A stretch of 64,000 nt of DNA from Pseudomonadota bacterium. Lineage in GTDB: Bacteria; Bdellovibrionota_B; Oligoflexia; Oligoflexales; CAIYRB01. The DNA lies in the NCBI GenBank assembly GCA_031416315.1, contig JANOTL010000201.1, forward strand, positions 15,685-79,684. Direction: 5' to 3'. Position numbers and translations under genes: made by a program. Of this stretch, positions 14,738 through 40,321 are shown piece after piece. The notes beneath the pieces were generated by a model that did not search any database, was not told the DNA's origin, and worked only from the letters and a program-made list of their open reading frames with translations. How positions within the stretch are numbered: the first letter of the stretch is position 1; the number at the start of each line of letters is the position of its first letter.

Positions 14738-15861
14738 AACTCGAGACTCTGCTCGTCCACGGCCATAAAAGCGCGTCGTTCGAGGAAAAGGACGTTGCCC
14801 CCGCGCTCCATCTCAGCACCACCTTCGAGCGCGAGCGCGACGGCACTTACCCCGAAGGCTATTCCTACACGCGCCGCGAGAACCCGAACCGCTCGCAGCT
14901 CGAGGCCGCCCTCGCCGCGCTCGAAGGCGGCGCCGGCGCCGCTTGCTTCGCCTCCGGCTCCGCCGCCACCTCGGCCCTGTTCCAGGCGTTAAAATCCGGC
15001 GATCACGTGATCGCACCGAACGACGCGTACTACGGCACCGGCGTCATCATCCGCGACTTCGCGCGTTGGGGGCTCACCGCCGACTTCATCGACATGGCCG
15101 ATCTCACCGCCGTCGAGCGCGCGGTGAAGCCTGGGAAAACCGCGCTCGTCTGGGTCGAGACGCCCTCGAACCCGCAGATGCGCGTCACCGACTTAGCCGT
15201 CGTCGCGAAAATCGCGCACAAAGCCGGCGCGCTCGTCGTCGCCGACAACACCGTCGCGACGCCGATCCTCTGTCGCCCCTTCGCGTTCGACGTCGATTTC
15301 GCGATGCATTCCACGACGAAATACGTCTCGGGCCACTCCGACGTCCTCGGCGGTGCCGTCGTCGCCCGCGAAGCCTCGGCCACTTGGGAAAAGATCCGCG
15401 CGGCTCAGCATTTCGGCGGCGCCGTCGCCTCGCCCTTCGACTGTTGGCTCGCCCTCCGCGGCCTCCGCACCATGGCGCTGCGCGTTCGCGAGCAAAGCCG
15501 AAGCGCCTTGGCCCTCGCCCAGTTCTTGGCCACTCACCGCCACGTCGAGCGCGTCTACTACGCCGGCCTCCCCGAGCACCGCGGCCACGCGCTCGCGGCG
15601 AAGCAGATGACGGCCTTCGGCGGCCTCCTCTCTTTTACCGTGAAGGCGGGCAAGGAGGCCGCGTTCAAAGTCGCCGGCGCCGTGCGTCTTCTCACGCGCG
15701 CCACGAGCTTGGGCGGCATCGAGACCCTGATCGAGCACCGTGCCTCCATGGAAGGCCCCGGCACCAGCACGCCGGAAAACCTCCTGCGCGTCTCCGTCGG
15801 TCTCGAGCATGTCGACGATCTCATTCAGGATCTCGGCCAGGCTTTGGCTTCTCTCGACTAG
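14734..15861 (+). CDS. Cys/Met-metabolism PLP-dependent enzyme (cystathionine gamma-synthase/beta-lyase family)
   Basis: 375 aa containing the PLP-lysine motif HSTTKYVSGHSDVLGG and ETPSNP. Its start makes an ATGA overlap with the upstream CPBP gene. Confidence 0.88.
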   Translation: MKLETLLVHGHKSASFEEKDVAPALHLSTTFERERDGTYPEGYSYTRRENPNRSQLEAALAALEGGAGAACFASGSAATSALFQALKSGDHVIAPNDAYYGTGVIIRDFARWGLTADFIDMADLTAVERAVKPGKTALVWVETPSNPQMRVTDLAVVAKIAHKAGALVVADNTVATPILCRPFAFDVDFAMHSTTKYVSGHSDVLGGAVVAREASATWEKIRAAQHFGGAVASPFDCWLALRGLRTMALRVREQSRSALALAQFLATHRHVERVYYAGLPEHRGHALAAKQMTAFGGLLSFTVKAGKEAAFKVAGAVRLLTRATSLGGIETLIEHRASMEGPGTSTPENLLRVSVGLEHVDDLIQDLGQALASLD

Positions 15862-15922
15862 GCGCCGAAGGCCGCAAAAGCTAGGCAATCCTTGTCCAGC
15901 GCGGCTTTCGCGCCTCTCGGGC

Positions 15923-15942
15923 TATTCTATTAAAGAAGAATA
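15923..15942. promoter_or_regulatory. AT-rich inverted repeat TATTCT-N8-AGAATA upstream of the giant E/R-rich gene
   Basis: Read directly from the sequence. It is an isolated AT-rich island in a GC-rich intergenic region, 23 nt before the ATG at 15965. Its function is unknown. Confidence 0.3.
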
Positions 15943-15964
15943 CCCAGAGCACGAGGCCATTCCG

Positions 15965-18900
15965 ATGAGTAGGGCGAAAGACCCGAAAGATCCCAATGGG
16001 GCGAAGGAGCCGCGGATCGAGATGTTCGCCGATGACGCGGACGATTTCGACGAGAAGGACTTCCTCGCCATCCGCCGCGAGAACCGCAAGGCCGAGGATC
16101 TCCTGAGTCGCGAGCTGGAGAGCCAGCTCCGCGACGCCGAGAGCATCGCCTCAGAGCAGAAGGTCCTCGAGCGTTTCTCCTCCGACCTCGTCCTGCGCGA
16201 GCAAGCCGCGCTGCGCGAGCTCCGCGAGAAGATCCTCGAAGTCGAGGGCAAGACCGCCAAGCCGCGCCTCGCCGAACGCCTCCGCGCCGAAGAGCTCTCC
16301 GCCCAGCACCGCCTCAGAGACCGCATGAACCAGGAGCGCGCCGAATCCGAGCGCCGCGTCGCCCGTCAGATCCAGCTCGAGCGCATCCAGGCGCAAAACC
16401 GCCTCACCGAGCGCATGGCCCAGGAAGAGAAGGCCGCGCGCGAGCGCGAGGCCGCGCAGATCAAGGCGGAAGCCGAGGAATCCGACCGCCGCCGCGCCGA
16501 TAACGCCGACGGCGAGGTCAAGGAGGCCGAAGCCCGCCTTCGCGGCGCGCAGCAAGCGGAGCGCGACGCCGCCGACGGCCGCCTCCGCGCGCAAGTCGCT
16601 CGCGAGCGGCTCGAGATCGAAGAGCGCCTTCGCGAGGTGCTCACCCGCGAGGACAACGAGAGCAAGCGTCGCCTCGCCCGCCAGCTCGCCGACGAAGCCC
16701 AGGCGAAAGAGCGCCGCACGCAGGAAAACGCGGAGCGTGAAGCTGCCGAGTCCCGTCGCCGTCTCACCGAGCGCATGACCGAAGAGCGCCGCCTCGTCGA
16801 GCTTCGCGCCCGCCAGCGTCAGATCGACGAGACCGGGGAGACGACCAAGCGCCTTGCCGCTCAAGCCGCCAAGGAAGACGCTGCCGTCGAACATTGGCGC
16901 AAGGAGCAAGCGCGCCGCGAAGAGATGGAGGCGAAGCAACGCTTAGCCGAGCGCCAACGCAACGAAGAGCTCGCCTCCGAGCGCCGCGTCGAGGACCGCG
17001 TTCGTCTAGAGACCGAAGCCGCCGCCAAACGACGCGTCGTTTACTTCGCCAAAGAGAAAGCCGAATCCGACGATCGCGTCCGGGCACGCCTTGAGATCGA
17101 GGACCGCGAGGCCAAGTCGCGCGACAGCGCTCGCCGCGAGCGCGAGGCCGAAGAGACGCTCCGCCGCGTGGAGGCCCAGCTCGCCGGCGAAGCCGTCGAT
17201 GCCGAGCGCCGTAACGCCCGCCGCCATGAGCTCGAGGCCGAGGGCGCCGCCGCCCGCGCTGCCGACCAAACCAAGAAGGAAGCTCTCGCCGCCGAGGCGC
17301 GTCGCGAAGCCGCGCTCAACACCGAAAAGCGCGAGGCCGATGCGCGCGAGCGCCAACGCCTCGCCGCCGAAGCCCGGGACGCCGACGCCCGCCTCGTCGC
17401 GGCCCAGCTGCTCGAGAAAAAAGCCTCCGAAGAGCGCGTCGCCTTCCGGATGCGCGAAGAAGAGGCGCGGGCCAACGACCGCCGCGACGCTCAACTCGTC
17501 GCCGAGGCCGGGGAAGCGAAAAAACGCTTCACCGCCGTTCTCGCTCGCGAAGAGCGCGAAGCCGAGCTCCGCGAAGCCGCCCGCGTCCCCGCCGAAACTC
17601 AGGAAACCGAGCGCCGCCGCGCCAACGCCCAAGAAGCCGAGCGCCGCTTCGCCGCCGAACGCCAGGCGAAGCGTCTCGACGCCGAGCGCCAAAGCGCCGA
17701 GCGGCGCGTCGCCGCGGCCATCTTGCAAGAGAAGAAGGAAGCCGAGCAGCGCCTGCGCCTCCGCCTCGCCGTCGAAGACCGCGAGGCCGAGCAGCGCCTC
17801 GCCGTCGTCGTCGCGCAGGAGAAGGAAGAAGCCGACAAACGCCTGCGCGACCAGAAGGACCGGGAGATGCGCGACGCGGAGCTTCGCCTCGCCCGCCGCC
17901 TCAAAGCCGAGGCGCGCGCCAACGAAGAGCGCAAGCGCGCCGCCGGCGTCGAGGAGCATGAAGCTTCCGAGTGCCGCGCCGCCACGATGATCGCCCGCGA
18001 GGAGCGCGAAGCGGAAGAGCGCGGCAAGACGCAGCTCGCGCAAGAAGCTCGCGACGCCGCCGAGCGGCTGAAGCTCCGGATGCAGGCCGAAGAAAAGGAC
18101 TCCGCCCAGCGTCGCGACGCGGCCCGCCGCCGCGAGGACGAAGCCGTCCGCGAGCGCGCCGCGAAGGCCAATATCGAGGAAGACCGGCAGGCCGAAGAGC
18201 GCGTAGCGCAGCGCCTCATCGCCGAAACCCGCGAGCTGGAATCGCTGCGCGCCCGCCTCGCCGAGACGGAGGAGCGCTCCGCCGTCGAGCGCCAACGCGT
18301 CCGTCAGGGGAAAGAAGACCGCGAATCCGAGGAGCGCCGTCGCCGCGCCCAAGCCCTCGAAGAAGAGAGCGCCGCCGAGCGCCTGCGCCGCCGCGTTGCC
18401 GACGAGGAAGAGGCCTCGCGCCTTCGCCTCGACGTCCGCCTTCGCGAGGAAGAACGCTACAGCGCCGCGCGGCTGAAACAACAGCTCGCCGAGGAGGAGG
18501 CGGCCGCGAAAAAGCGCCTGACCCAACTCCGCTTGCAAGAGCGCGCCGCCTCCGAAGAACGCACGACCAAGCGCCGCGAGGACGAAGATCTCGCCCGCGA
18601 GCGACGCCTAAAAGCCGGCGCCGAGGCCGAGGCGGAAGAAACCAAGCGCCGCCACCAGGAGCTCTTCGAGACCGAAGAGCGCGAGTCCCGCGAGCGCTAT
18701 GCCGCCGCTTTCCGCGAAGAACGCGAAGAAGCCGACAAACGCCGCAAGGCCCGCCTCAGTGACGAAGCCCAAAAAGCCGCCGATCGCGCGGTTCGCCGCC
18801 AGAAGGACGATCAAGAAGCGTTCAAAAAGCGCCTCACGCTGCAGCTCTCCGTCGAGGAGGAGGAAGCGGCTCGCCGTATGCAGGAGGCCATGGCCGCCGA

Positions 18901-20053
18901 GCAAAGAGAGGTCGACCTCCGCCGCGCCGAGACCGAGCGCGTCTTCGACGAGGACCGCCGCCGTCGCCATGAGCTCACGCTCGAGGCCGAGGCTAAAGCC
19001 GGTAGAGAGCGCATCGCTCGCTTGCAGTCGGAGGAGCTCATCGCCGCCGAGCGCAAGAAGCGCGAGCTACTTCGGCTAGAAGAGGAGGAGGCGAAGATTC
19101 GCCTCGCCAAGGCCATAGAAGACGAGCGCAAAGGCCACGACGACCGCCTCAAGCGCCGGCTCGAAGACGAGGAGCGCGACGCCCAAAAACGCCGTGTCGC
19201 TCGCCTCGAGGTCGAAGGCCTGACCGCGCGCAAGCGCCACGAGGAAGCGCTTTCCCGCGAAGAGTTCGAGTCCCAGCAGCGCATCCAGGATCGTCTCGCC
19301 GACGAGGAAGAGGCCTCGAAGCGCCACGAGGAAGAGCTCGTCGCGCAGGAAGCGATCGCCGCGGAGAAGCGGAAGATGGCGCGCCTAGTCGAGGAGCAAA
19401 AAACGCTCGGCGAGATCGACAAGGTCCGCAAGGCCACGCATCGCAAGCGCGAGGTCGAGCGCATGCAGCTGATCCAGGACCTCGCCCGCCGCGAGCAGGA
19501 AGTCTGGCTCGCCGAAAAAGTGCGCCTCGAGCGCGAGCTCGCGAAAGAGCTCGACGACTCGCAGCGCCAGCACGCCCGCGAGCTGCAGAATGAAGAGCAA
19601 GCGATGCGCCAACGCGTCGCCCAGCGCACCTCGCGCGCGAAAGAGCGCGAAGTTAGCCTGGCCGATCTCGAGCGCGAGCTGGACGAAGCCGATCAGCGGC
19701 GCCGCGAGCAAGCCCAGAAGCTCGCGACTCTCCCGCAGCCCGAGCCGCTAGCGCCGACGGCGGTCCTAGAGCCCACCATCGGCTGCGATCTCGCGCGCGT
19801 CCTCTCCGCCACCTCGCCGAAGATCCTCGCCCAAGAGCTGGCGATGAAGACCGCCGTCGAGGCTTTCGAGCTCCTCGACGACTGCAGCGAGGAAGCGCGC
19901 GGCGTCATCCTGCTCGCCATCAACGAGCCGATGAAAAGCCTCTTCGAAGGCGAGCTCGCGACATCGCCGCGCCTTGCCGCCGCACGGCGCCGCAAGGGGC
20001 CACGCCCGATCGACACCTTCGTCGAAGGGCTCGAACGTCGCTTCACGCGGTGA
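15965..20053 (+). CDS. Giant E/R/A-rich repetitive alpha-helical protein (1362 aa; predicted single alpha-helix or non-heptad coiled coil) with a small C-terminal globular domain
   Basis: The in-frame ATG at 15965 (MSRAKDPKDPNGAKEP...) lies downstream of the metB-like gene. The track ORF start at 15740 overlaps that gene. There is no signal peptide or TM helix. About 1200 aa consist of degenerate AExRLxxxLxxExxE-type repeats. The last ~130 aa are non-repetitive. Confidence 0.85.
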   Translation: MSRAKDPKDPNGAKEPRIEMFADDADDFDEKDFLAIRRENRKAEDLLSRELESQLRDAESIASEQKVLERFSSDLVLREQAALRELREKILEVEGKTAKPRLAERLRAEELSAQHRLRDRMNQERAESERRVARQIQLERIQAQNRLTERMAQEEKAAREREAAQIKAEAEESDRRRADNADGEVKEAEARLRGAQQAERDAADGRLRAQVARERLEIEERLREVLTREDNESKRRLARQLADEAQAKERRTQENAEREAAESRRRLTERMTEERRLVELRARQRQIDETGETTKRLAAQAAKEDAAVEHWRKEQARREEMEAKQRLAERQRNEELASERRVEDRVRLETEAAAKRRVVYFAKEKAESDDRVRARLEIEDREAKSRDSARREREAEETLRRVEAQLAGEAVDAERRNARRHELEAEGAAARAADQTKKEALAAEARREAALNTEKREADARERQRLAAEARDADARLVAAQLLEKKASEERVAFRMREEEARANDRRDAQLVAEAGEAKKRFTAVLAREEREAELREAARVPAETQETERRRANAQEAERRFAAERQAKRLDAERQSAERRVAAAILQEKKEAEQRLRLRLAVEDREAEQRLAVVVAQEKEEADKRLRDQKDREMRDAELRLARRLKAEARANEERKRAAGVEEHEASECRAATMIAREEREAEERGKTQLAQEARDAAERLKLRMQAEEKDSAQRRDAARRREDEAVRERAAKANIEEDRQAEERVAQRLIAETRELESLRARLAETEERSAVERQRVRQGKEDRESEERRRRAQALEEESAAERLRRRVADEEEASRLRLDVRLREEERYSAARLKQQLAEEEAAAKKRLTQLRLQERAASEERTTKRREDEDLARERRLKAGAEAEAEETKRRHQELFETEERESRERYAAAFREEREEADKRRKARLSDEAQKAADRAVRRQKDDQEAFKKRLTLQLSVEEEEAARRMQEAMAAEQREVDLRRAETERVFDEDRRRRHELTLEAEAKAGRERIARLQSEELIAAERKKRELLRLEEEEAKIRLAKAIEDERKGHDDRLKRRLEDEERDAQKRRVARLEVEGLTARKRHEEALSREEFESQQRIQDRLADEEEASKRHEEELVAQEAIAAEKRKMARLVEEQKTLGEIDKVRKATHRKREVERMQLIQDLARREQEVWLAEKVRLERELAKELDDSQRQHARELQNEEQAMRQRVAQRTSRAKEREVSLADLERELDEADQRRREQAQKLATLPQPEPLAPTAVLEPTIGCDLARVLSATSPKILAQELAMKTAVEAFELLDDCSEEARGVILLAINEPMKSLFEGELATSPRLAAARRRKGPRPIDTFVEGLERRFTR

Positions 20054-24133: not shown

Positions 24134-24515
24134 GGCCCGGATCCTATCACTTCGGCTGATCGCGGCCACACTGCCCGCGGCCGCCGAAAGGGTCCGGCCT
24201 CGCCTTGCTGACGGTCAGGATGAGGACGACGATACCGGGGAGGCGAGACAATTCGAGGGCCCTACAATTCTGCTTTCGAACTCAGCCGCAGGCCGGGCGG
24301 ATGGCCTCGCGAACAACTCTCATTTCAGTGGGTTACGATTTCGTCGTCCGACGCGGCCCAAGTCCTCGGCACCACATGCGAGGCGTTCTCGCCGCACCGT
24401 CGTGCGAGTTCGTCATGGACAGGCGTTCGGACTTCCGGCCACACTCAGCATCACGCCAAAAACGTTGTGCAGTGATACCTGGAATCAATTCATGCGGTTA
24501 GCGGACGGATAAGCA

Positions 24516-26498
24516 GTGGCACGACCCAAATCGACCTCTACCTCGGCAGCTGCGAAAGCGGCCGAAGGCGACAGCGACTACCTCCAAAAGGTCAAAAAGT
24601 CGGCGAAGACGATCACCACGTCGAGCACGGCCGAATATTTTTCCAAGAACCTGCAACAGGTCGGCTTCTCCTCCCCCGTCAAAGCGGTCCTGACCACTTT
24701 GAAGGAGGCCGTCGACAACTCGCTCGACGCCTGCGAGGACGCCGGCATTCTCCCGGAGCTTTCGCTCATCATCCACCGGCTCGGGCCGGGGACGCTGAAG
24801 AACACCGACAATATCCGGATCAAAGTCGAGGACAACGGCCCCGGCATCGAGGCCGACGATATCCCGAAGGTTTTCGGCGAGTATCTGGCGTCCTCGAAGT
24901 TCGGCCGCGGCCGCTGCTCCCGCGGGCAGCAGGGCATCGGCATCTCGGCCGCGACGACCTGGGCGATGCAGACCACCGCGCGCGGCGCGAAAGTGATCAC
25001 GAAGCAGAAATCGCAGCGCAAGGCGGTCAGCTGCATCATCGACATGGACCTGAAGAACAACAAGGGCATCGTCCGCGACAAGACGATGATCGAGTGGAAA
25101 GAGCCGCACGGCACCGTCGTCGAGTTCACCCTCGACGGGCGCATCCAGCTGAACGGCGAGGGCGGTCTCCTCACGTATATCCGCGGGACGATCCTCCTCA
25201 ACCCGCACATGACCCTGCATTACGACATCACGGACCACCCGAAAACCAGCGTCGAGCGCGTCACGAACACCGTGCCGCTGATCCCTGAGGCCACCGAGCC
25301 GCATCCGCACACGATGAAGCTCGGCGAGTTCATCTCGCACGCGCGCCTCTTCGGCCGGATGAAGACGCGCGACTGGCTGAAGCGCGGCTTCTCCCGCATC
25401 AACGATCGCGCCATCGCCGACATCCAGAAGGACAAGGACAAGTCGAAGCGCATCGAGGACAAGACCCTCGACGCCTTCATCGACACGATCGCCGACGACA
25501 ATTTCAAGGCGGTCTACGCCGCCATCCAGCACGCCACGTTGCTGCCGCCCGCGACCAACACGGTCATGGCCGTCGGCGAGGACGGCCTGGCCCTTTCGAT
25601 CCGCCGCCTGGGCGACGTCGACTACTTTGCCGTCCTGACCCGCAAACCCGCGATCTGCGACTTCAAACCCGTGCAAATCGAGGTGGCCATCGCGCGCCTC
25701 AAAGAGCGTACGGGCGAGGACACGGACAGCCCCGTCCAAGTTCTGCGCTTCGCCAACCGCGTGCCTCTGCAGTTCGACAAAGCGTCCTGCGCCATCGTGA
25801 AATCTTTGACCTCGGTGCAATGGCGCTCCTACGGCCTGCGCCAGCCGAAGGATTCTCTGCCGCTCGGCCCGTATATCGTCGCCGTCTCGGTCGTCTCGCC
25901 CTTCATCAAATTCAAGAACGCCTCGAAAGAGACGATCGACGCCTCCGACGAGCTCGTCGAGGAATTGCGCCGAGCGCTCATGCAAGCCGGCCAGCGCCTG
26001 TCTCGCTACTTGAAGCGCGAGAACAAGGCCGACGTCCTCGAGCAACGCGTGCAGCACATGGAGCAGTTCGGCCCCGTGTTGATCGAGACGCTCGCCCGAA
26101 TCCTCGAAGCCCCCGACGAGCGCAAGCAGCGCGCCACCGAGGGCCTTTCGAAGATTCTCGAGCGCGACACCAAAGGCCTGAAGAAAGATCTGAAGGACGC
26201 CGAAGGCCGGCTCTCAAGCTACCTCGAGCAGAAAAAGCAGCGCCTTTCGGGCTTCTTCAAGACGATCGAGGCGGAGGAAGAAGAGGCCGAGCGCAAGCTG
26301 AAGGCCGGCGACGACGACGAAGACACGATCGATGCCGAGGCCGAAGAGGTCGAGTCCAAGCCAGCGCCGGCGAAGAAGGCCAAGAAAGGCAAGAAGAGCA
26401 AGGCGGCCGCCGCCCCGGCGCCCGCGCCCGCGAAAAAAGCCGCGCCCGCCAAAAATGCCCCGCCCGCGAAAAAAGCCAAAGCCAAGAAGAAGAAGTAA
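24516..26498 (+). CDS. top6B: DNA topoisomerase VI subunit B (type IIB, GHKL ATPase) with a K/A/P-rich C-terminal tail
   Basis: Bergerat-fold boxes EAVDNSLDA (N box), VEDNGPGI (G1) and SRGQQGIGIS (G2) are present, followed by a transducer-length region. The C-terminus is a coiled-coil/acidic stretch then KKAKKGKKSKAAAAPAPAPAKKAAPAKNAPPAKKAKAKKKK. The start codon is GTG. Confidence 0.88.
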   Translation: MARPKSTSTSAAAKAAEGDSDYLQKVKKSAKTITTSSTAEYFSKNLQQVGFSSPVKAVLTTLKEAVDNSLDACEDAGILPELSLIIHRLGPGTLKNTDNIRIKVEDNGPGIEADDIPKVFGEYLASSKFGRGRCSRGQQGIGISAATTWAMQTTARGAKVITKQKSQRKAVSCIIDMDLKNNKGIVRDKTMIEWKEPHGTVVEFTLDGRIQLNGEGGLLTYIRGTILLNPHMTLHYDITDHPKTSVERVTNTVPLIPEATEPHPHTMKLGEFISHARLFGRMKTRDWLKRGFSRINDRAIADIQKDKDKSKRIEDKTLDAFIDTIADDNFKAVYAAIQHATLLPPATNTVMAVGEDGLALSIRRLGDVDYFAVLTRKPAICDFKPVQIEVAIARLKERTGEDTDSPVQVLRFANRVPLQFDKASCAIVKSLTSVQWRSYGLRQPKDSLPLGPYIVAVSVVSPFIKFKNASKETIDASDELVEELRRALMQAGQRLSRYLKRENKADVLEQRVQHMEQFGPVLIETLARILEAPDERKQRATEGLSKILERDTKGLKKDLKDAEGRLSSYLEQKKQRLSGFFKTIEAEEEEAERKLKAGDDDEDTIDAEAEEVESKPAPAKKAKKGKKSKAAAAPAPAPAKKAAPAKNAPPAKKAKAKKKK

Positions 26499-26501
26499 GC
26501 C

Positions 26502-27677
26502 ATGGCCAAAGCCACCACGACCGCCCGCCGCGCCGGGAAAAAAGGCGCCGAGATCATCGGTCTCGGCAAAGAGCTGTGCGAGAAGATGATGGTCGACCTG
26601 GAGAAGGCGAAACGCCCCATCCTCCAGGCCACCAAGTGCTCGCTCGACAACGCCAACTACTCGCCGACGGTCGGCTACCTGACCCCAGGCAACAAGAAGG
26701 TCTCCTCCGAGCTCAACGTCAGCTCGGTGAAGAAGATTACCCGCGCGATTTTCATGCTGGAGCTCCTCCTCCGCAACGTCGAGATCCAGACGATCAATAC
26801 GAAACGGGAGCTCTACTACGTCGCCAAAGGCTACGTGAAGCACGACCCCAAGCTGAAAGCCCTCGATTTCGGCGATCAGGACGAGTCCGACTCCGTCATC
26901 GACTTCATCTGCGAGATGATGGAGGCCTACCGCGAGGAGCTGAACTGCGTCGCCGACGACCGCGGCGGCCAGACCTACTCGAAGAACCTCGTCGTCGTCG
27001 AGACCGAGTCGGACGGCAACGTCGCCACCATCGACTTAGGCTCTCTCGGTACGGCGCCCTTCCAGCCGAAGAACCGGCCGCAGAACCTCGAGCTCAAGAC
27101 CACCGGCAAGCTCGACTTCTGCATCGTCATCGAGTCGCAGGGCACGGCGAACACGCTCGTCGCCAACGGCTTTACCAAGCGCAACAACTGCATCGTCATC
27201 GGCTCAGGGGGCGTCCCCTCCAACGCCGTGCGCGCCTGGCTCCGCCGGATCCAAGATCAGCTGGGCATCCCGCTCTACTTCTTCGGCGACCTCGACGCCT
27301 ATACGATCCAGAACATCTACCGGACGCTCAAGGCCGGCTCCGCCGCCTCCTTGATCCGCAACTCCGAGTTCTGCGCCCCGGAGGTCCGCTTCCTCGGCGT
27401 CCTCCCCGACGACATCAAAAAATACGACCTCGTCGACTACGCCGTGCGCGAGGCCGACATCGGCGAAGCCCGCGCGCTGAAGAAGGCGAAAGACGCGATC
27501 TCCAACGACCCGTTCTTCAAAGACAAGAAGAACAAGGAGCTGAAAGAGATCCTCGACTGGCTCGTGAAGAACAAGCGCCGCTGCGAGCAGCAGGCCTACA
27601 TCTCCGTCGATCCGCGCGATCCGCTCTGCATGGAGAAGATCCTGATCGACAAGATCAAGAAGAAGGACTTCATCTAG
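26502..27677 (+). CDS. top6A: DNA topoisomerase VI subunit A (Spo11 family)
   Basis: KRELYYV at residues 101-107 is the catalytic-tyrosine context. Toprim acidic residues are present (CIVIESQG and FFGDLDAYT). The 391-aa length matches archaeal Top6A. The gene starts 3 nt after the top6B stop. Confidence 0.88.
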   Translation: MAKATTTARRAGKKGAEIIGLGKELCEKMMVDLEKAKRPILQATKCSLDNANYSPTVGYLTPGNKKVSSELNVSSVKKITRAIFMLELLLRNVEIQTINTKRELYYVAKGYVKHDPKLKALDFGDQDESDSVIDFICEMMEAYREELNCVADDRGGQTYSKNLVVVETESDGNVATIDLGSLGTAPFQPKNRPQNLELKTTGKLDFCIVIESQGTANTLVANGFTKRNNCIVIGSGGVPSNAVRAWLRRIQDQLGIPLYFFGDLDAYTIQNIYRTLKAGSAASLIRNSEFCAPEVRFLGVLPDDIKKYDLVDYAVREADIGEARALKKAKDAISNDPFFKDKKNKELKEILDWLVKNKRRCEQQAYISVDPRDPLCMEKILIDKIKKKDFI

Positions 27678-27687
27678 GACTTAGACC

Positions 27688-30600
27688 GTGCCCTCCGTCC
27701 GCGGCCTCCCCTCACTCGTGTCCGGTGCCCTAGCGGCTCTCGCGGCCGGACGAAGGGTGCAGGTCGCCGGCGTGTCGGAATCCTTGGCCGAGCTCGTCGT
27801 CCTCACCCTCGCCCGCCGTGCCGCTCGCAAGAAGCTCGTTCTGGTTCTGCCGCACCCGAAGGAGCTTACGCCTTGGACCCAGTTCCTCGAGCACACGCTG
27901 CCCGAGGTCGTCCCAGAGGCCCGTTCCGCGATCCTTCCGTTTTTCTCGCTCTACGGCAACGACCGCTTCATCAACCCGAGCCTCGCCCGCAAGCAGCGCC
28001 TCTATGCGATCGCGGCCTTGGCCGACCCCACGCGCCCGGCCGTGATTGCGACGACGCTCCCGGCCCTCGCGCAAGCCACGCTGGCTCCGAGCGAGCTCGT
28101 ACCCCATCTCTTCACGGTGAAAACCGGCCAAGAGCTCGACCCCGACCGTTTCATCGCGGTCCTCGAGGACTTAGGCTACGCGCCGCACGCCTCGGTCGAG
28201 GAAGAAGGTCAATACGCGCTCCGCGGCGGCATCGTCGACGTCTTCCCCGTGAATCGCGACCTGCCGCTCCGAATCGAGTTCCTCGGCGACGACGTCGCCT
28301 CCATGCGCGAGTTTGTCCTCGCCGACCAGAAATCGCGCACGACGCTGGCCGAAGCGACCATCGCCCCCGCCTACGAGGCCCTGACCCCCGCCTCGAGCCG
28401 CAAGGGCGACGCGCAAAAGCTCTACGAGATCCTGATGGAGCTGAAGGACCTCCATCCCGCCGACCGCGACGGCATGGTCTCCGCCTTCCTCCAGGGCGCG
28501 CGCTTCGCCGGCTTCGACATGTTCTCGCCGCTTTTCCGCGCGGCGCCCGCCTGCGCGCTCGACTACCTCGATGCCGGAGACTCCCTCCTCGTCTTCCCGA
28601 AGGGCCTCGAAGCGTGCACGGAGCACTACACGGATTTTCAGGCCGCGCTCGCCGAAGCCTTCGTCCGCGACGTCGAGAAGGGGCGCCCGACGCTTCCCAC
28701 CGACCGCCACTTTCCGTCACCCGCCGCCCTCGCCGAAAAGCTCGCGCCGCTCCGCGCCGTCGTCGAGTTCGGCAACCCTTTCGCCTCCCCCGAAGCCGAG
28801 CTCTTCCGCGTCGAAGGCCGCCTCACGCTCGACGGCGCCCCCAACGTCGCTTCCGTCGGCGCCGAGCTCTTCGAGAAATGGGCGAGCGCCATCCAGAAGC
28901 TCGCCGTGGAGAATTCCGGCAGCGTCATCCTGCTCGCGCACCACGACGAGCAGATGGACCGCATCAAGAACCTCCTCGGCCACCGTAGCCTGAACGCCGA
29001 GCGCACGCCGAGCCTTCTCGCGGCCTTCGTCGACCAAAAGCTGACCCCCGGCGCCATCCTCATCGGCAAAGGCGACCTCGCCTCGCACGCTTTCGTCGAG
29101 GGCGAAGGCGGCCAGGCCACCCTCGTCCTGCCGGAGCACGCGCTTTTCGGCGCCCGCCCGCGCAAGGCGAAGCCGGCGTCGCAGAAGCTGCAGAACTACC
29201 TGTCTTCCTTCGCCGACCTCAAGGCCGGCGACCTCATCGTGCACGTCCAGCACGGCATCGGCCGCTATCAGGGCATGTCGACCCTCACGGTCGCCGGCGT
29301 CGCGAGCGATTTCCTGATCCTGGAATACGCCTCGGGCGACAAAGTCTACCTCCCCGTCGACCGTTTGAACCTCCTTCAGCGCTACAACGTCGGCTCGGAA
29401 GGCGCCGGCTCGCACGCGCTCGACAAGATTGGCGGCCCCGGCTGGGAGAAGCGGAAATCCCGGGTCAAAGGCGCGGTCAAGGACATGGCCGACGAGCTCA
29501 TCAAGATTCAGGCGAAGCGCGCCTTGGCCAAAGGCTTCGCCTTCCACGCCACCGACGATGAGTACGTCAAGTTCGAGGCCGCGTTCCCGTACGAAGAGAC
29601 GGAGGACCAGACCCGCGCGCTCACCGACGTCGACGCCGACCTCCTTTCGGGCCGACCCATGGACCGCCTCGTTTGCGGCGACGTCGGCTTCGGCAAGACG
29701 GAGATCGCGCTCCGCGCCGCCATGCGTGCGGTCCTCGAAGGCTACCAAGTCCTCGTCCTCGTCCCGACCACCGTCCTTTGCTACCAACACTATCGGACCT
29801 TCCAGACGCGCCTCGACCCCTTCGGCGTCCGCGTCGCCCAGGTCAACCGCTTCGTCTCCTCCGTAGAGCTCGCCGAGGCGGTGAAAGGCCTCGAGGAAGG
29901 CCGCGTCGACGTCTTGATCGGCACCCATCGCATCCTTTCGAACGACATCAAGCCCAAGCGCCTCGGCCTCCTCGTCATCGACGAAGAGCAGCGTTTCGGC
30001 GTCGCCCACAAAGAGAAGCTGAAACAGGTCCGCGCCGGCGCCCACGTCCTCACGCTCACGGCGACGCCGATCCCGCGCACGTTGCACATGGCGATGGTCG
30101 GCCTCCGGGACATCTCGATCATCGCCACGCCGCCGCACGACCGCCTCTCGGTGAAGACTTACATCTCCCGCTTCGACGAAGCGCTGATCAAGGAAGCGAT
30201 CGAGAACGAGGTGCGCCGCGGCGGCCAGGTCTTCTTCGTCCACAACCGCGTCGAGGACATCGAGGAAATCCGCCTCTTCCTCAAGACCCTCGTCCCCCAC
30301 CTGGAGATCCGCGTCGGCCACGGTCAGATGCGCGAGCACCAGCTCGAGAAGGTCATCGTCGACTTCCTCGAGCAAAAGTTCCCGATCCTGCTTTGCACGA
30401 CGATCATCGAATCCGGCATCGACATGCCGAACGTCAACACGCTCATCGTCGACCGCGCCGACCGCTACGGCCTGGCGCAGCTCTACCAGCTTCGCGGCCG
30501 CGTCGGCCGCTCGAACGTCCAGGCTTACGCCTATTTCCTCACGCCGGTCGAAGAGCGCCTGAGCGAAGAAGGCAAAAAACGTCTCGACGTCCTCGCCGCC

Positions 30601-31251
30601 TACCAGGATCTCGGCGCCGGCTTCCAGATCGCGAGCCACGACCTCGAGCTCCGCGGCTCCGGCAACCTGCTCGGCGGCGAGCAGTCGGGACACGCCGCCG
30701 CGGTCGGCCTCGAGCTGTACACGCAGCTCCTCGACGGCGCCATCGCCGCCCTCCGCGGCGAAGCGGTCGAGGAGATCGTCGACCCGGAGATCAAGCTCCC
30801 GGTCTCCGCCCTCATCCCTCCGACCTACATCGCGGAAGAGCGCCAACGCCTCGTCCTCTACAAGCAGCTCTTCGCCGCCGAGTCGACCGAGACCTTGAGT
30901 CGCCTGAAGCTCGACGTCGAGGACCGCTACGGCAAGGCGCCGCCGGAGCTCGCCCTCCTGCTCAAGGTCGCGCGCCTGAAACAGCAGCTCCGCCAGATCC
31001 GCGTCCAGCGGCTCGCGGCCTCGAACGACGCCTTCGAGCTCCGCTTCGCCAAGCTCGCCGAGACGCAGATCGACTCGCTCATCCAGATCGTAGCCAAGCA
31101 ACCGGACCGTTACCGCCTGTCGCCGGACTATCGCCTCTATCTGAAGCTGAAAGTCCCCGGCCGCGTCACCCTCGAGTCCCAGGACGAGATGCTCAACCAG
31201 CTCATTTCGCTCGTCGACCCGCTCGTGGAAAAGTTAGCGACGGGGTCCTAG
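27688..31251 (+). CDS. mfd: Transcription-repair coupling factor
   Basis: 1187 aa with an SF2 helicase core (GDVGFGKTEIALRAA, DEEQRFGV, TLTATPIPRTL, QLRGRVGRS), a UvrB-homology N-terminus and a TRCF C-terminal domain. Confidence 0.95.
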   Translation: MPSVRGLPSLVSGALAALAAGRRVQVAGVSESLAELVVLTLARRAARKKLVLVLPHPKELTPWTQFLEHTLPEVVPEARSAILPFFSLYGNDRFINPSLARKQRLYAIAALADPTRPAVIATTLPALAQATLAPSELVPHLFTVKTGQELDPDRFIAVLEDLGYAPHASVEEEGQYALRGGIVDVFPVNRDLPLRIEFLGDDVASMREFVLADQKSRTTLAEATIAPAYEALTPASSRKGDAQKLYEILMELKDLHPADRDGMVSAFLQGARFAGFDMFSPLFRAAPACALDYLDAGDSLLVFPKGLEACTEHYTDFQAALAEAFVRDVEKGRPTLPTDRHFPSPAALAEKLAPLRAVVEFGNPFASPEAELFRVEGRLTLDGAPNVASVGAELFEKWASAIQKLAVENSGSVILLAHHDEQMDRIKNLLGHRSLNAERTPSLLAAFVDQKLTPGAILIGKGDLASHAFVEGEGGQATLVLPEHALFGARPRKAKPASQKLQNYLSSFADLKAGDLIVHVQHGIGRYQGMSTLTVAGVASDFLILEYASGDKVYLPVDRLNLLQRYNVGSEGAGSHALDKIGGPGWEKRKSRVKGAVKDMADELIKIQAKRALAKGFAFHATDDEYVKFEAAFPYEETEDQTRALTDVDADLLSGRPMDRLVCGDVGFGKTEIALRAAMRAVLEGYQVLVLVPTTVLCYQHYRTFQTRLDPFGVRVAQVNRFVSSVELAEAVKGLEEGRVDVLIGTHRILSNDIKPKRLGLLVIDEEQRFGVAHKEKLKQVRAGAHVLTLTATPIPRTLHMAMVGLRDISIIATPPHDRLSVKTYISRFDEALIKEAIENEVRRGGQVFFVHNRVEDIEEIRLFLKTLVPHLEIRVGHGQMREHQLEKVIVDFLEQKFPILLCTTIIESGIDMPNVNTLIVDRADRYGLAQLYQLRGRVGRSNVQAYAYFLTPVEERLSEEGKKRLDVLAAYQDLGAGFQIASHDLELRGSGNLLGGEQSGHAAAVGLELYTQLLDGAIAALRGEAVEEIVDPEIKLPVSALIPPTYIAEERQRLVLYKQLFAAESTETLSRLKLDVEDRYGKAPPELALLLKVARLKQQLRQIRVQRLAASNDAFELRFAKLAETQIDSLIQIVAKQPDRYRLSPDYRLYLKLKVPGRVTLESQDEMLNQLISLVDPLVEKLATGS

Positions 31252-32190: not shown

Positions 32191-33213
32191 ATGCTCAAAT
32201 TCGTATATTTTGCCTTCTGCGCGCTGTTCTTCGGCGCCGGCGTCTACGTCTGGAAAGTGAAGAATACCGGCGCCGCGCAGGTCGCCCCGGACGATCCCGT
32301 CGCGGCGGCCCCGCCCGCCGAGGATTTCCGTCAAACCGGCGCCTTGGTCGAAATTGCCGGCACCCAGATCACCCAGGAAGATGTGAACTGGGAATACGAC
32401 CTCGTCACCTCCGGCGTCGTCGGCAACGAAGAGCTCACCCCGATCCCCGACCTAGGCCCTCGTCTCACCGAAGAGCTGAAGCCGCTTCGCAAGGCGATCG
32501 TCGCCAACATCATCGAGCGCAAGCTCCTCTACGCCTTCGTCCAGCAGGACAAGTCGTTCGTGTTCGACGAGCCGAGCCGCTACGAGAGCTGCATGAAGGA
32601 ATGGCAGGAGACGATCAAGGCCGACCAGATCGGCGCCCAATCCTTCGCCTCCAAGGAAGGCCGCAATCGCCTCCGCGCCCGTCTCTGCGAACGCTCCGTC
32701 CTTGAGCAGTACCTCGACGAAAAGCTGTTTGCCGACGTGACCGCAAGCCCGGACGAAGCGCTCGAGTACTATAAGAACCATCGCGCCGAGTACAGCGTCT
32801 CCGAGCGCGTCGTCATCCGCCAGGTCCTCCTCGGCAGCGACGCCGACGCGAAGCGCGTGCGCGCCCAGATCAATACGCAGAACTTCGCCGACCTCGCGCG
32901 CTCCAAGTCGATCGCGCCGGAGGGCGTCGACGGCGGCAAGCTCGGCCCTTTCACCAAGTCCGCGATCCCCGCGATCTTCGAGATGGCCTTCAGCATGAAG
33001 AAGGGCGAGATCAGCCCGATCCTGAAATCGCCGTACGGCTACCACATCATGACGCTCGTCGAAAAGCTCCCGCGCTCCGAGCTTTCCTTCGACCAGGTGA
33101 AGAACAAGATCACCAAGGTCCTGCGCCGGAAGCAGCAGGAAGAGCGCTACCAGAAGTGGGTCGACAAGGCCCTGGCCTCGATCGCCGTGAGCTCCCCGAA
33201 ACCGCTGTGGTGA
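32191..33213 (+). CDS. Parvulin-type peptidyl-prolyl cis-trans isomerase (PpiC/PrsA-like), N-terminally anchored
   Basis: It has an N-terminal TM helix and a C-terminal parvulin domain (VVIRQVLL...GGKLGPFTKSAIPAIFEMAFSMKKGEISPILKSPYGYHIMTLVEK). Confidence 0.8.
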   Translation: MLKFVYFAFCALFFGAGVYVWKVKNTGAAQVAPDDPVAAAPPAEDFRQTGALVEIAGTQITQEDVNWEYDLVTSGVVGNEELTPIPDLGPRLTEELKPLRKAIVANIIERKLLYAFVQQDKSFVFDEPSRYESCMKEWQETIKADQIGAQSFASKEGRNRLRARLCERSVLEQYLDEKLFADVTASPDEALEYYKNHRAEYSVSERVVIRQVLLGSDADAKRVRAQINTQNFADLARSKSIAPEGVDGGKLGPFTKSAIPAIFEMAFSMKKGEISPILKSPYGYHIMTLVEKLPRSELSFDQVKNKITKVLRRKQQEERYQKWVDKALASIAVSSPKPLW

Positions 33214-33218
33214 ACCCG

Positions 33219-34613
33219 ATGCGTCATTTTCCCGCGTTTCTCGCCCTCGCCCTCGTCCTGCTCTCGGGCGCATGCCGCACGCCCGAAGGCCCCGCGAAGC
33301 TCCGCGCCGAGTTCGGCGACGGCGGCATCCCGGTCGATTGGGGCAATGTCGCCGTCGCCTCGGTTCCGAGCTCTCCCGAAGCTTCGGTCGCCAATGCCGC
33401 CGCGCGCCGCTTGAACCAGGCCGCCACGCTCGCCAAGCTCGTCGACGGTTGGCCGGCGGGCTTCGCGACGCAGGACGCCATCGTCGCCGTGCCGCTCACG
33501 CTCCTCGAGGAGCCGCAAAATCAGCCCTTCGGTGACGGCCAGGCGAACGGCAGCATTGCCTGGCCCGGCTGGCCCGCTGGCGCCGAAGACGTCCCGGTCA
33601 TCGCCTACGCAGCCACCTCGAGCAGCGGGCGCATCCTCGTCGTCGAGGCCGCGCAGGAGCTCATGGACCTCGTGCTCCCCGCGGACGGCGCCGTCACCGT
33701 CGAGCTCGGCGACGAGGCCCACGTCGTTACCGCCGCGATGACCTTCGACGCCGAGCGCAAAGTTTTCCGCACCCTATTCTCCGACGTTGCCGCGCTCGCG
33801 GCGAAAGACGCCTTCCCGACGAGCTTCGCTGCGCTCCCCGATTGGAGCTACGCCGCGCTGATGCCCGACTCTTGGGGCAAGCTCCGCGTCCGTTTCGCCC
33901 GCGGCAGCGCCAAGGACGAGCGCGCCTGGCCCCTCCTCTTCCGTTTCCCCGCCGGCAAGACCGGCGCCATCCTCGCCTCGCTCAGCGAGGACCAACGTAA
34001 ACACAAACATTTGAGCAACGTCGCCTCCTGGCCTTTTACCGCCACCACGACCGCGACCCCCTACGAGCAGCTGAAGACCTGGCAAGCCGCCGCCGGCGAC
34101 TCCGTCGCGCACTTCTACCCGGGCGCCGCCGGTGTCCACCACGAGCACGCCGGCCACATGACCGCCTCCGGCGGCGTCGACACTTTCGTCGTCGAGAAAG
34201 CTGCCGACGCCCCTAAGCTCCAGGTTCTTTACACCTGCTTCGACGGCAGGAACCCCGAGAAGGAGGCCAACTGGGCCGTCCCGTCCGGCGCCGGCTGGCA
34301 CGTCATCGGTGAGAAGCCGAACAACGACTCCGAGCCGCAGACCTACGGCGAGTCCATCGTCCACAACCTCGAGAGCGCCGGAATCTTCGCCGGCTGGGGC
34401 GTCCGCAGTCCGATCGCCCTGACGGGCGAGGCGCCCTTCGGCGCGCGCGACGTCGCCACGTTCCGCGTGCTTCGCCCAGGCGAGACCTTCACCACGGCGC
34501 AAAATCACTTCCACTGGTACGCCATCGACGCGAAAGACCGCGTCTGCGCGACCATCTGGAAGCACTTCTGCCCGCTCACCTCCGATATGAGCCTCGGCTG
34601 CGCGAGCCACTAG
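33219..34613 (+). CDS. Hypothetical lipoprotein (464 aa)
   Basis: The start at MRHFPAFLALALVLLSGAC gives a lipobox. Codon bias looks coding. I do not recognise a family. Confidence 0.6.
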   Translation: MRHFPAFLALALVLLSGACRTPEGPAKLRAEFGDGGIPVDWGNVAVASVPSSPEASVANAAARRLNQAATLAKLVDGWPAGFATQDAIVAVPLTLLEEPQNQPFGDGQANGSIAWPGWPAGAEDVPVIAYAATSSSGRILVVEAAQELMDLVLPADGAVTVELGDEAHVVTAAMTFDAERKVFRTLFSDVAALAAKDAFPTSFAALPDWSYAALMPDSWGKLRVRFARGSAKDERAWPLLFRFPAGKTGAILASLSEDQRKHKHLSNVASWPFTATTTATPYEQLKTWQAAAGDSVAHFYPGAAGVHHEHAGHMTASGGVDTFVVEKAADAPKLQVLYTCFDGRNPEKEANWAVPSGAGWHVIGEKPNNDSEPQTYGESIVHNLESAGIFAGWGVRSPIALTGEAPFGARDVATFRVLRPGETFTTAQNHFHWYAIDAKDRVCATIWKHFCPLTSDMSLGCASH

Positions 34614-36599: not shown

Positions 36600-36781
36600 C
36601 GACTCCCTCAGGTAAGCCTGCATCCGTGCATGCCTCTACCGGCCCGCAAGACGCCGTATGGTGTCACACGTGAGTTCTCGTCCAAGAGCGCTCAATCACG
36701 TGATCAAGCCTTCCCTGAGCTTTCTCCAAATACTCCCGTCTATTGCCGAACCGAATTTCCTTTCAAAGGAACTTAGGACCT

Positions 36782-37093
36782 ATGGAAAGCCAGAAGATCC
36801 GCATCCGTCTGCGTGGGTACGATTACCGACTGCTCGATCAATCGGCAGCCGACATCGTCGAGCGCGCGAAACGTACGGGCGCCCGCGTCGCCGGTCCGAT
36901 TCCGCTGCCCACCGCCATCAACCGCTACACGGTTCTGCGCAGCCCCCACGTCGACAAGAAATCGCGCGAGCAGTTCGAGGTTCGGACCCACAAACGGGTG
37001 ATCGACATTCTCGAGCCGAAACAGCAGACGATCGACGCGTTGATGAAGCTGGACCTCGCGTCCGGCGTCGACGTCGAAATCAAGCTGTACTGA
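36782..37093 (+). CDS. rpsJ: 30S ribosomal protein S10
   Basis: [44 protein letters not shown]... It is the first gene of the conserved S10 cluster. Confidence 0.97.
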
Positions 37094-37143
37094 ACTCTGC
37101 GCAACTCCTCCGGACCTAAACCAGAAAGCGACAGGTTGCACGT

Positions 37144-37812
37144 ATGACGACAACCGCAATCATTGCCAAGAAGATCGGTATGACCCGCATGGTCGACGCC
37201 GAAGGCCGTGTTACGGCCGTTACCCTGCTCGAAGTCACGACCCAAAAGGTCACGAAGATCCTCACGCCCGAGCGTGACGGCTATCACGGCTTCCAGGTCG
37301 GCTATTACGAGAAATCCGAGAAGCACCTGCGTAAGCCGGACATGAGCCGTCTGCGCAAAGTCGAAGTTCAAGAGAACTTCACCCGCTTCAAAGAATTCCG
37401 CCTCGACGGCGCCGCCACGGTCGCCCTCGGCGCTGCGATCGAAGTCGGCCTCTTCGAAGGCGTCAAAGCCGTCGACGTGACCGGCATCAGCAAGGGCCAC
37501 GGCTTCGCCGGCGCCCACGTCCGCTGGAACTCGGCCGTCGGCCGGATGTCCCACGGCTCGCGCTTCCACCGCAGCCCGGGCTCGCTCGGCATGCGCGCCA
37601 CCCCTGGTCGCGTCATGAAGAACCGCCACCAGCCGGGTCACCACGGCGCGGCGCAAGTCACCGTGCAGAACCTCGACGTCCTCGACATCGACAAAGAAAA
37701 CCACGTCATCGCCCTGCGCGGCTCGATCCCGGGCCATCGCGACGGTTATCTGATCTTGAAGCCCTCGATTAAGATCAAGACCAAAAAAGGCCCCCCGGGC
37801 ATCAAGAAGTAA
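37144..37812 (+). CDS. rplC: 50S ribosomal protein L3
   Basis: [26 protein letters not shown] and [12 protein letters not shown]-type motifs are present, and the gene order fits. Confidence 0.97.
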
Positions 37813-37869
37813 GCTGCGCGGCGCACTGATCACGGGCTTGAACGAAGGTTCCCAAAGAAGGTCTTCAAC

Positions 37870-38496
37870 ATGGAACTCCAGGTTTACAACATCGAGGGCA
37901 AAGCCCTCCGCAAGATTACGGTGCCGGAGTCTATCTACGGCGTCGAGATGAACGGCGGCATCCTGCACACCGTCGTCAAGGCTTACCTGGCGAACCGTCG
38001 CCAAGGCACGCACGCCACGAAGACCAAGTCCTTCGTCTCCGGCGGCGGCAAGAAGCCCTTCAAGCAAAAGGGCACCGGCGGCGCCCGCCAGGGCTCGACG
38101 CGCAACCCGCACATGCCCGGCGGCGGTGAAGCCCACGGCCCGCAACCGCGCGACTACCGCCAAGCCACGAACAAGAAGATGCGCCAGCTCGCGCTGAAAG
38201 TCGCTCTCTCGGACAAGGCCCGCCACGGCAAGCTCTTCGTCGTCGACGACTTCGGCATCGCCAAGCCCTCGACCAAGCACGTCATCAAAGTCATCGCCAG
38301 CCTGAAGGCCAACAAGGCCCTCCTCGCCGACGAGCGCAAGGACGACCTGCTCTACAAGTCGACCCGCAACATCCACGGCGCCGAGGCGCTTCTGCCGGCC
38401 GAGCTCAACGCAGAGAACGTTCTGCGCTACGAGAGCCTGATCGTCAGCGAAACCGCCCTCAACGCCCTCAAGCAACGCCTGGAGGGAGCTGAATGA
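37870..38496 (+). CDS. rplD: 50S ribosomal protein L4
   Basis: [29 protein letters not shown] is present, and the gene order fits. Confidence 0.97.
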
Positions 38497-38780
38497 ATCC
38501 GTACAACGTCCTCGTTCGCCCCCTGCTCTCTGAAAAGAGCAACCGGGCCCGCGAAAACGAAAACAAGTACTCGTTCACGATCCGTCCCGACGCGACCAAA
38601 GCCGACGTGAAATCGGCCGTCGAGAAGATGTTCGACGTCAAGGTCGAGTGCGTGAAGACGATGGTCACCCGCGGCAAGATCAAGCGCCGCGGCAACACCG
38701 AATACAAAGCTCCGAACGTCAAAAAAGCTGTCGTGACCTTGGCCGAAGGCGCCAAAATCCCGCTGTTCGAGGACCTCTGA
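38493..38780 (+). CDS. rplW: 50S ribosomal protein L23
   Basis: [41 protein letters not shown]. Its start makes an ATGA overlap with rplD. Confidence 0.96.
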
Positions 38781-38781
38781 G

Positions 38782-39618: not shown

Positions 39619-39649
39619 TTCATAGTTCGATATCTATAGGGAGTCGCCT

Positions 39650-39934
39650 GTGGCTCGTTCGATCAAAAAAGGTCCGTTCCTCGACCAATACCTGCTCAAA
39701 AAAGCAGAAGTGGCGCGTCAGGACAAAAAACCGATCAAAACCTGGTCCCGTCGCTCGACGATCATCCCGGACTTTGTCGGCTTGACCTTCGCAGTGCACA
39801 ATGGCAAGAAGTTCGTTCCTGTTTACGTGACAGAAAATATGGTCGGCCACAAACTTGGCGAGTTCTCCCCGACGCGTACCTTCTTGGGGCACGCCGGTGA
39901 TCGCAAAGTCAAAAAAGCACCGGGCGCCGCCTAA
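39650..39934 (+). CDS. rpsS: 30S ribosomal protein S19
   Basis: [18 protein letters not shown]...[33 protein letters not shown]. The start codon is GTG. Confidence 0.97.
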
Positions 39935-39957
39935 GTTGAAAGAGTCGGAGACCAGCC

Positions 39958-40296: not shown

Positions 40297-40321
40297 TTCT
40301 TCGTAGAGCAGGGGTGAGACC

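Follow-up and report, generated by a model that had tools for sequence, protein, structure and literature searches.

A 64,000-nt stretch of contig JANOTL010000201.1 (the window in the following, whose positions are used wherever no other locus is named) carries two adjacent genes, top6B and top6A, for the B and A subunits of topoisomerase VI (topo VI). Very probably this pair gives rise to a functional A2B2 enzyme that has been inherited vertically in the phylum Bdellovibrionota and, beside gyrase, serves for decatenation and relaxation where most bacteria use topoisomerase IV (topo IV). The presence of topo VI in Bdellovibrio bacteriovorus is already published, and the window adds a member from an Oligoflexia-like lineage together with evidence that extends over the whole phylum. 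Current knowledge is not overturned by this, and a topo VI gene in a genome of Bdellovibrionota will not surprise a specialist. What this enzyme does in bacteria is recognised as an open question (PMC11302465). The clade described here deviates from the biochemically studied enzymes of Archaea in one loop whose function has been defined by experiment, and it has a charged disordered tail.

Gene pair and family assignment

The gene for the B subunit (top6B, 24516..26498, + strand) starts with GTG and codes for 660 amino acids (aa) with an ATPase, an H2TH and a transducer domain and a C-terminal extension. The gene for the A subunit (top6A, 26502..27677, + strand), the DNA-cleaving member of the Spo11 family, starts with ATG and codes for 391 aa. 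At the junction, which reads AAG TAA gcc ATG, the spacer measures exactly 3 nt. The list of open reading frames (ORFs), the junction sequence and the translations all agree with the original prediction of two frames 3 nt apart that carry the full motif sets. In Top6B these motifs are KEAVDNSLDA (aa 63-72), VEDNGPGI (aa 104-111) and SRGQQGIGIS (aa 135-144), in Top6A they are KRELYYV (aa 101-107), VIESQG (aa 209-214) and FFGDLDAYT (aa 260-268). Judged from their reading frames, both genes are confirmed as intact, full-length topo VI genes. The A and B subunits are encoded separately, as is typical for topo VI, and the order B-then-A on the same strand is found in all 80 related loci that were compared (see below).

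By profile, by sequence and by predicted fold the two proteins belong to topo VI, in line with the identity proposed from the motifs, and the matches are far stronger than chance would give. The three domains that had been suggested for profile searches (Topo-VIb transducer, TP6A_N and Toprim) were all matched by Pfam: Top6B gave Topo-VIb_trans at 6e-42 and, additionally, HATPase_c at 1e-9, and Top6A gave TOP6A-Spo11_Toprim at 5e-38 and TP6A_N at 1e-11. With the NCBIfam equivalog model for topo VI-B (NF003218) Top6B reaches 475.2 bits at a cut-off of 274, and with TIGR01052 it reaches 359.8 bits, slightly under the cut-off of 380.7. Among the structures in the PDB the best matches of Top6B are the M. 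mazei chain 2q2e_B (1.7e-75 over aa 30-531) and S. shibatae Top6B (2zbk_B, about 1e-51). For Top6A the M. jannaschii entry 1d3y comes first (1e-34), followed by M. mazei and S. shibatae at about 1e-20.

The predicted folds lead to the same assignment. In a Foldseek search with the AlphaFold2 model of Top6B (mean predicted local distance difference test, pLDDT, of 70.6) the top 16 PDB matches are all topo VI-B with E-values from 1e-34 to 1e-25, and the model superposes over the whole chain on topo VI-B with template modelling (TM) scores of 0.62-0.73, normalised by target length. The ATPases of GyrB, MutL, topo II, SMCHD1 and Hsp90 appear only at E 5e-9 or worse. The AlphaFold2 model of Top6A (pLDDT 77.1) retrieves eight topo VI-A chains and then yeast Spo11, and beyond topo VI-A and Spo11 its fold search contains no match at E <= 0.001.

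For the assessment of single residues 120 homologues of each subunit were aligned with archaeal reference fragments. The GHKL/Bergerat ATPase domain of Top6B (24678..25205, + strand, about aa 55-230) comprises the N-box with E64 and N68, the G1 box D106-N-G-P-G110 and the ATP lid S135-RGQQGIGIS144. E64, N68, D106, the DNGPG box and the whole ATP lid are invariant in the 120 homologues, and the ATP-binding residues align to E44, N48 and the rest of the ATP site in M. mazei. The H2TH domain (25299..25535, + strand, about aa 262-340) forms a helical bundle in the model (H269-339), and its counterpart in the alignments with 2q2e_B and 2zbk_B is their H2TH region. Next to it lie the transducer and the stalk helix (25548..26105, + strand, aa 345-530). 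The transducer-length region noticed beforehand in the B subunit corresponds to a match with PF09239 (aa 345-509, 6e-42), and the stalk helix spans aa 478-530 in the model. The switch lysine K471 is invariant and aligns to the SK motif of M. mazei and S. shibatae. The WKxY motif of the transducer, which is involved in binding of the gate (G-) segment, has the form W436-R437-S438-Y439. Its tryptophan and tyrosine are invariant in all 120 sequences, and position 437 is arginine in 107 and lysine in 13 of them.

In Top6A the winged-helix (5Y-CAP) domain (26730..26945, + strand; PF04406, aa 77-148) contains R102 and the catalytic tyrosine Y106 (codon 26817-26819). The motif K101-R-E-x-Y-Y106 is invariant in the 120 homologues and aligns to REAYY of M. 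jannaschii, and we take its second tyrosine to be Tyr103 of that enzyme. The Toprim domain (27117..27611, + strand; PF21180, aa 206-370, 5e-38) contributes the metal-binding acidic residues E211 (27132-27134), D263 (27288-27290) and D265 (27294-27296). As R102, Y105, Y106, E211, D263 and D265 are invariant throughout the alignment, the suspicion that the catalytic Tyr, Glu and Asp might not be conserved can be dismissed. The DxD motif is intact and not replaced by DxN, a variant known from meiotic topo VI-like complexes (PMC11302465).

Compared with M. mazei topo VI (2Q2E; 2026 cryo-electron microscopy structures 9O0G/9O8P), the domain order is the same in both subunits. Common features are the ATP-binding residues, the switch lysine, a WKxY-type motif (WKQY in M. 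mazei, WRSY here), the catalytic tyrosine and the Toprim acidic residues, at an identity of about 20-23% between the two Top6A proteins in the structural alignment. Even the best solved-structure match of Top6A, that of M. jannaschii (1D3Y), is only about 31-33% identical, and the Bdellovibrionota clade is therefore deeply separated.

Distribution, inheritance and genomic context

A scan with Top6A as query, in which every species was represented by one genome, revealed close relatives in 284 species-level genomes, and the 80 best loci of these were fetched and compared. Almost all of the 80 are from metagenome-assembled genomes, with Top6A identities of 65-83%. They are labelled as Oligoflexia, Oligoflexales, Pseudobacteriovorax (a member of Bdellovibrionota, class Oligoflexia), Bacteriovoracia/Bacteriovoracaceae, Bdellovibrionales or Bdellovibrionota, or carry the old label Deltaproteobacteria. 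The relatives include many genomes of Bdellovibrionales and Pseudobdellovibrionaceae, which show 65-72% identity in Top6A together with the B-then-A order. The statement that topo VI occurs only sporadically in Bacteria, from which the original prediction had started, does not apply to this lineage, where close relatives occur in 284 genomes and the pair is present in 80/80 loci.

Top6A is better conserved than the transcription-repair coupling factor Mfd, whose housekeeping gene follows it in the window. In the same genome pairs the identities of Top6A and Mfd are 82 vs 64% (locus L001), 71 vs 49% (L007) and 69 vs 55% (L018), and over the pairs compared Mfd ranges from 47 to 64%. A library clustered at 50% identity contains a single full-length representative for the entire clade, with an identity of 52-54%. 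The next full-length relative (P0251) is only 33-36% identical to the Top6A of the window, which indicates a clade that is deep, tight and well separated. P0251 itself shares 52% identity with the M. jannaschii fragment, in agreement with the published tree, in which bacterial topo VI forms two clusters inside the archaeal sequences, one of them near Methanococcales (PMC11302465). From these comparisons the gene pair appears to be an old core feature of the phylum that was kept vertically and reaches into Oligoflexia-like lineages, and not a recent or sporadic acquisition; a single ancient acquisition followed by vertical descent in Bdellovibrionota would fit the data. The alignments also indicate that the top6 genes are under purifying selection.

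Two observations on the relatives may be added. In three of the 80 loci top6B is split over two reading frames (L053 8012-9803, L071 8064-9709, L079 8169-9876), and one of these loci belongs to a “complete genome” (CP064976.1). Probably these are assembly or sequencing frameshifts rather than real pseudogenes. Furthermore, distant Top6A-like matches were found within longer proteins of 746-1061 aa (P0296, P0297, P0301, P0305, P0310, P0322, P0333, P0352, P0360 and P0374). Some of them contain two matched stretches or the match lies in the C-terminal third, and they may represent type IIB enzymes of fused or duplicated architecture.

Upstream of the pair lie genes for complex I subunits, gpsA and further genes for an AraC-type regulator, a glyoxalase-family protein, a UPF0176/rhodanese protein, an APH-type kinase and a nitronate monooxygenase (NMO). 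Downstream of top6A follow mfd, two SurA-type peptidyl-prolyl isomerases (PPIases) and a series of closely packed small ORFs. The mfd gene (27688..31251, + strand), with the Pfam domains TRCF, CarD_TRCF_RID, UvrB_inter, DEAD and Helicase_C, lies 10 nt downstream of top6A and is a neighbour, not a part of the enzyme. The closest loci share the order NMO (- strand), top6B, top6A, mfd, PPIase and SurA-like PPIase, and from these loci and their labels the window was assigned to an Oligoflexia-like member of Bdellovibrionota. The order top6BA-mfd-PPIase-SurA is found in about 14 of the closest loci (a subset of L001-L026) and is lost in the rest of the phylum. The window differs from B. bacteriovorus in its Oligoflexia-like and high-GC (about 63%) lineage, and only its closest relatives have the same flanks (NMO, mfd and the SurA-type PPIases). 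Clustering of the flanking ORFs of the 80 loci revealed no neighbour conserved over the phylum, the best family being present in 12/80.

Between the divergent NMO gene (- strand) and top6B there is an intergenic region (24170..24515, without assigned strand) that, from the layout of the ORFs, presumably contains the top6B promoter; a promoter scan of this region found no match to the sigma-70 consensus. Since the terminator scan detected no terminator-like site on the + strand between top6B and mfd, and since only the 10-nt gap (27678-27687) separates top6A from mfd, co-transcription of these two genes is likely.

The GC content at third codon positions (GC3) is 0.87 in top6B and 0.92 in top6A, within the range of 0.65-0.93 covered by the other ORFs of the window. 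No tRNA, no Rfam family, no mobile-element gene and no gyrase or topo IV gene was found within the 64 kb. The earlier impression of a housekeeping context and not an island is thus borne out by host-like GC3, the lack of a tRNA and the core-type neighbours.

Cellular role and competing explanations

According to Allen & Maxwell (2024) topo VI occurs in 17 bacterial families including Pseudobdellovibrionaceae with B. bacteriovorus. All these bacteria possess gyrase, but ParC/ParE only those that belong to Pseudomonadota and Terrabacteria, and in bacteria lacking topo IV the enzyme was rationalised as a specialised decatenase (PMC11302465). The same authors mention that an E. coli parE(ts) mutant is reported, in unpublished data, to be complemented by topo VI from M. 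mazei (PMC11302465), and McKie et al. describe topo VI as a preferential decatenase (PMC8837201). The closest known system is the topo VI of B. bacteriovorus (Bd2864/Bd2865), a two-gene enzyme of the same kind from the same phylum, for which gyrase without ParC/ParE has been reported. A review on the chromosome biology of this organism lists Bd2864 as topo VI, Bd2865 as “Top II” and Bd0005 as “Top IV” (PMC11318664). Because it adjoins Bd2864, Bd2865 is probably Top6B.

A functional bacterial type IIB topoisomerase, as was originally proposed, is the best reading of the gene pair because both subunits are full-length, the catalytic residues are intact, the context is that of core genes and conservation is strong. 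Enzyme activity, the role as a decatenase and the absence of topo IV from this genome we infer from related systems, and the individual steps of the mechanism follow the archaeal enzyme. The GHKL domains of two Top6B subunits would dimerise on ATP and trap the transported DNA duplex. The signal would then proceed via the transducer with its switch lysine K471 and via the stalk to the Top6A dimer. There Tyr106 of each Top6A would cut the gate duplex with the help of Mg2+ held by the Toprim residues E211, D263 and D265, leaving the 2-nt overhangs characteristic of topo VI, the trapped duplex would pass and the break would be resealed. In the cell the enzyme may act as dedicated decatenase and as relaxase of positive supercoils and precatenanes, beside gyrase. 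An A2B2 decatenase in the niche of topo IV is considered most likely because gyrase without ParC/ParE is published for B. bacteriovorus. The original prediction had called the role alongside or instead of topo IV unknown. With this the novelty was overstated, since topo VI in B. bacteriovorus and its co-occurrence with gyrase in the absence of ParC/ParE are already published (PMC11302465, PMC11318664).

Several points weigh against this interpretation. The label “Top IV” for Bd0005 (PMC11318664) conflicts with the report of gyrase and topo VI without ParC/ParE (PMC11302465). A role instead of topo IV would be extrapolated from one published species that belongs to a different class of the phylum. 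The basic KGRR loop, although needed in M. mazei (PMC5922973), is not kept in the clade (see below). Finally, the best topo VI-A model for Top6A (NF003335) yields 375.9 bits at a cut-off of 424, and the remaining topo VI-A sub-models score lower. Still, 376 bits is far over every other model, and the shortfall fits better with a divergent clade than with a different family.

In an alternative, the genome would also carry topo IV, and an active topo VI would be a redundant or a specialised enzyme. Its task would then be narrower, for example the resolution of multiple chromosome copies in filamentous or polyploid stages, or transcription-coupled topology next to mfd. This is rather unlikely. 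In its favour are the name given to Bd0005 in the review (PMC11318664) and the probable co-transcription of top6BA with mfd in the closest relatives. However, the bacteria with all three topoisomerases are without exception Pseudomonadota or Terrabacteria and not Bdellovibrionota, and B. bacteriovorus is absent from the inspected parts of the ParC alignment (PMC11302465). Moreover, only the closest loci, roughly 14, have mfd next to the pair, with no other neighbour conserved over the phylum, and the better conservation of Top6A in comparison with Mfd suggests that the enzyme is essential and not merely accessory.

Far less probable is that the pair is a recently transferred or decaying archaeal one with no function in its host, even though the position of the bacterial clusters inside the archaeal tree points to ancient horizontal transfer (PMC11302465) and top6B is split in three of 80 relatives. 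In the window both frames are intact with host-like GC3, the catalytic residues are invariant in the 120 homologues and synteny with core genes is conserved. The split genes are from metagenome assemblies and are more simply explained by assembly errors. Since the nearest relative outside the clade is only 33-36% identical, any transfer predates the radiation of the phylum. A recent transfer or an island was rejected on the basis of GC3, of synteny and of how deep the clade is.

Similarly improbable is a different system built from GHKL and Toprim modules, i.e. topo VIII/Mini-A on an integrated element, a JetD-like or MORC-associated defence nuclease or a Spo11-like break-maker, though Toprim or GHKL folds are common to all of them. 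Profile, structure, fold and PADLOC results leave the first three without support. In topo VIII the B and A parts are fused into one polypeptide, and Mini-A has no B partner. Both are known from plasmids and integrated elements and belong to the type IIB fold family, sharing the GHKL and Toprim/5Y-CAP modules with topo VI. In the window there are, in contrast, two separate chromosomal genes in a core context, free of mobile-element genes, tRNA or a compositional break, and their full-length best matches are topo VI equivalog models (376-475 bits); the distinction is drawn from model scores, genomic context and descriptions of these families. JetD of the Wadjet system has a Toprim domain related to that of Top6A, and with PADLOC one JetD model produces a weak, local match to this domain (only 23 bits, E 7e-6), while Top6B has no PADLOC match. 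There is no full-length similarity to JetD, no JetD structure among the significant fold matches and no JetABC in the neighbourhood, which consists of NMO and mfd. In the fold search the MORC-type (SMCHD1), MutL and GyrB ATPases rank far under topo VI-B, by 20 or more orders of magnitude. Finally, the ATPase of Top6B is fully intact, unlike that of the meiotic Top6B-like proteins.

Clade-specific parts of Top6B and other features of the window

The cavity for the transported (T-) segment is lined in M. mazei Top6B by a basic loop, KGRR186-189, and mutation of this loop abolishes strand passage (PMC5922973). It is counted among the functional motifs of archaeal topo VI and is not a formal criterion for the family. 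At its structural position, that of the T-segment sensor, the window has DGRIQLNGEGG (25134..25166, + strand, aa 207-217), which aligns to KGRR186-189 of M. mazei and to PKAKSR of S. shibatae and belongs to a strand-loop-helix element in the model (E199-208, H218-228). The form DGRIQLNGE[A/G]G occurs without exception in 120/120 homologues, and the loop is non-basic, with one Arg, one Asp and one Glu. It is thus under strong constraint in this clade but not basic. As the KGRR motif is not conserved, either the T-segment must be sensed in another way here or the activity of the enzyme could be changed.

The second difference concerns the C-terminus. The immunoglobulin-like (Ig-like) C-terminal domain of M. 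mazei Top6B is absent. It is replaced by an extra long helix (26115..26270, + strand, aa 534-585 of a model helix 534-597) and a disordered acidic/basic tail. The helix is partly conserved in relatives, with L544, L548, L559 and A562 invariant. From the translation, the tail is composed of an acidic low-complexity stretch (26271..26357, + strand, aa 586-614, AEEEEAERKLKAGDDDEDTIDAEAEEVES) and a Lys/Ala/Pro-rich basic part that ends with the stop codon (26358..26498, + strand, aa 615-660). Its last 40 aa include 16 Lys and no acidic residues, and the pLDDT of the model is below 50 over aa 599-660. Comparable acidic stretches are present in most Top6B relatives, and 113/120 homologues have at least 30 residues past the conserved core. 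At least 10 Lys/Arg in the last 40 aa are found in 89/120, though the sequence of the tail itself is not conserved, and 27 other homologues have no net basic tail. A search of the literature (searchable sources, with subscription journals outside its scope) returned no mention of a lysine-rich Top6B tail or of the KGRR loop in bacterial topo VI. We regard the loop replacement and the charged tail as modestly new and as small leads.

A basic low-complexity tail was also observed on the other subunit and in another lineage: P0251, the nearest Top6A outside the clade, has a Lys/Arg/Ala-rich N-terminal extension on its A subunit (MAKKKATRKAATRGAKPAVTGTKRAPAKL).

Taken together, loop and tail allow a tentative and somewhat doubtful scenario, in which topo VI was inherited from the ancestor of Bdellovibrionota as the only decatenase and T-segment sensing by Top6B has been re-wired, with a non-basic loop and a disordered histone-H1-like tail. 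The acidic-then-lysine-rich tail would supply DNA affinity or recognition of crossings, which would make it a loose counterpart of the plant topo VI accessory proteins or of the C-terminal region of eukaryotic topo II. Polyploid filamentous growth stages are known in Bdellovibrionota, and a link between them and re-wired sensing is speculative, as is the idea that the tail makes up for the lack of a basic loop. Plant topo VI also operates beside other type II enzymes, and a possible analogy, which is our own, would be extra DNA binding outside the catalytic core. Its accessory proteins RHL1 and BIN4 are separate proteins that occur only in eukaryotes possessing topo VI (PMC11302465), whereas the extra basic segment of the window Top6B is a fused tail. 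The phylum is a reasonable place for testing the function of bacterial topo VI, and such work could show whether a KGRR-type sensor is dispensable. For this B. bacteriovorus is available as a genetically tractable organism.

Besides the topo VI genes some other ORFs of the window deserve mention. Two frames on the + strand, 33156-34613 (485 aa) and 60289-61383 (364 aa), have coding-like GC3 and belong to no Pfam family, and the ORFs at 4477-5301, 10942-11985 and 12284-13147 are without a Pfam family too. About 9 kb past top6A, at about 36700-51700 (+ strand), approximately 25 small ORFs are arranged like a ribosomal-protein (S10/spc/alpha) cluster, a resemblance of layout only. On the + strand at 15740-20053 there is an ORF of 1437 aa with no Pfam match and with extreme richness in Glu, Arg and Ala, located in the region of highest GC (0.68-0.70) of the window with a strong AT skew (+0.4). 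It looks like a repeat protein that forms one very long, charged coiled coil or single alpha-helix, and its true start is probably located downstream, around Met76 (MSRAKDPKDP).

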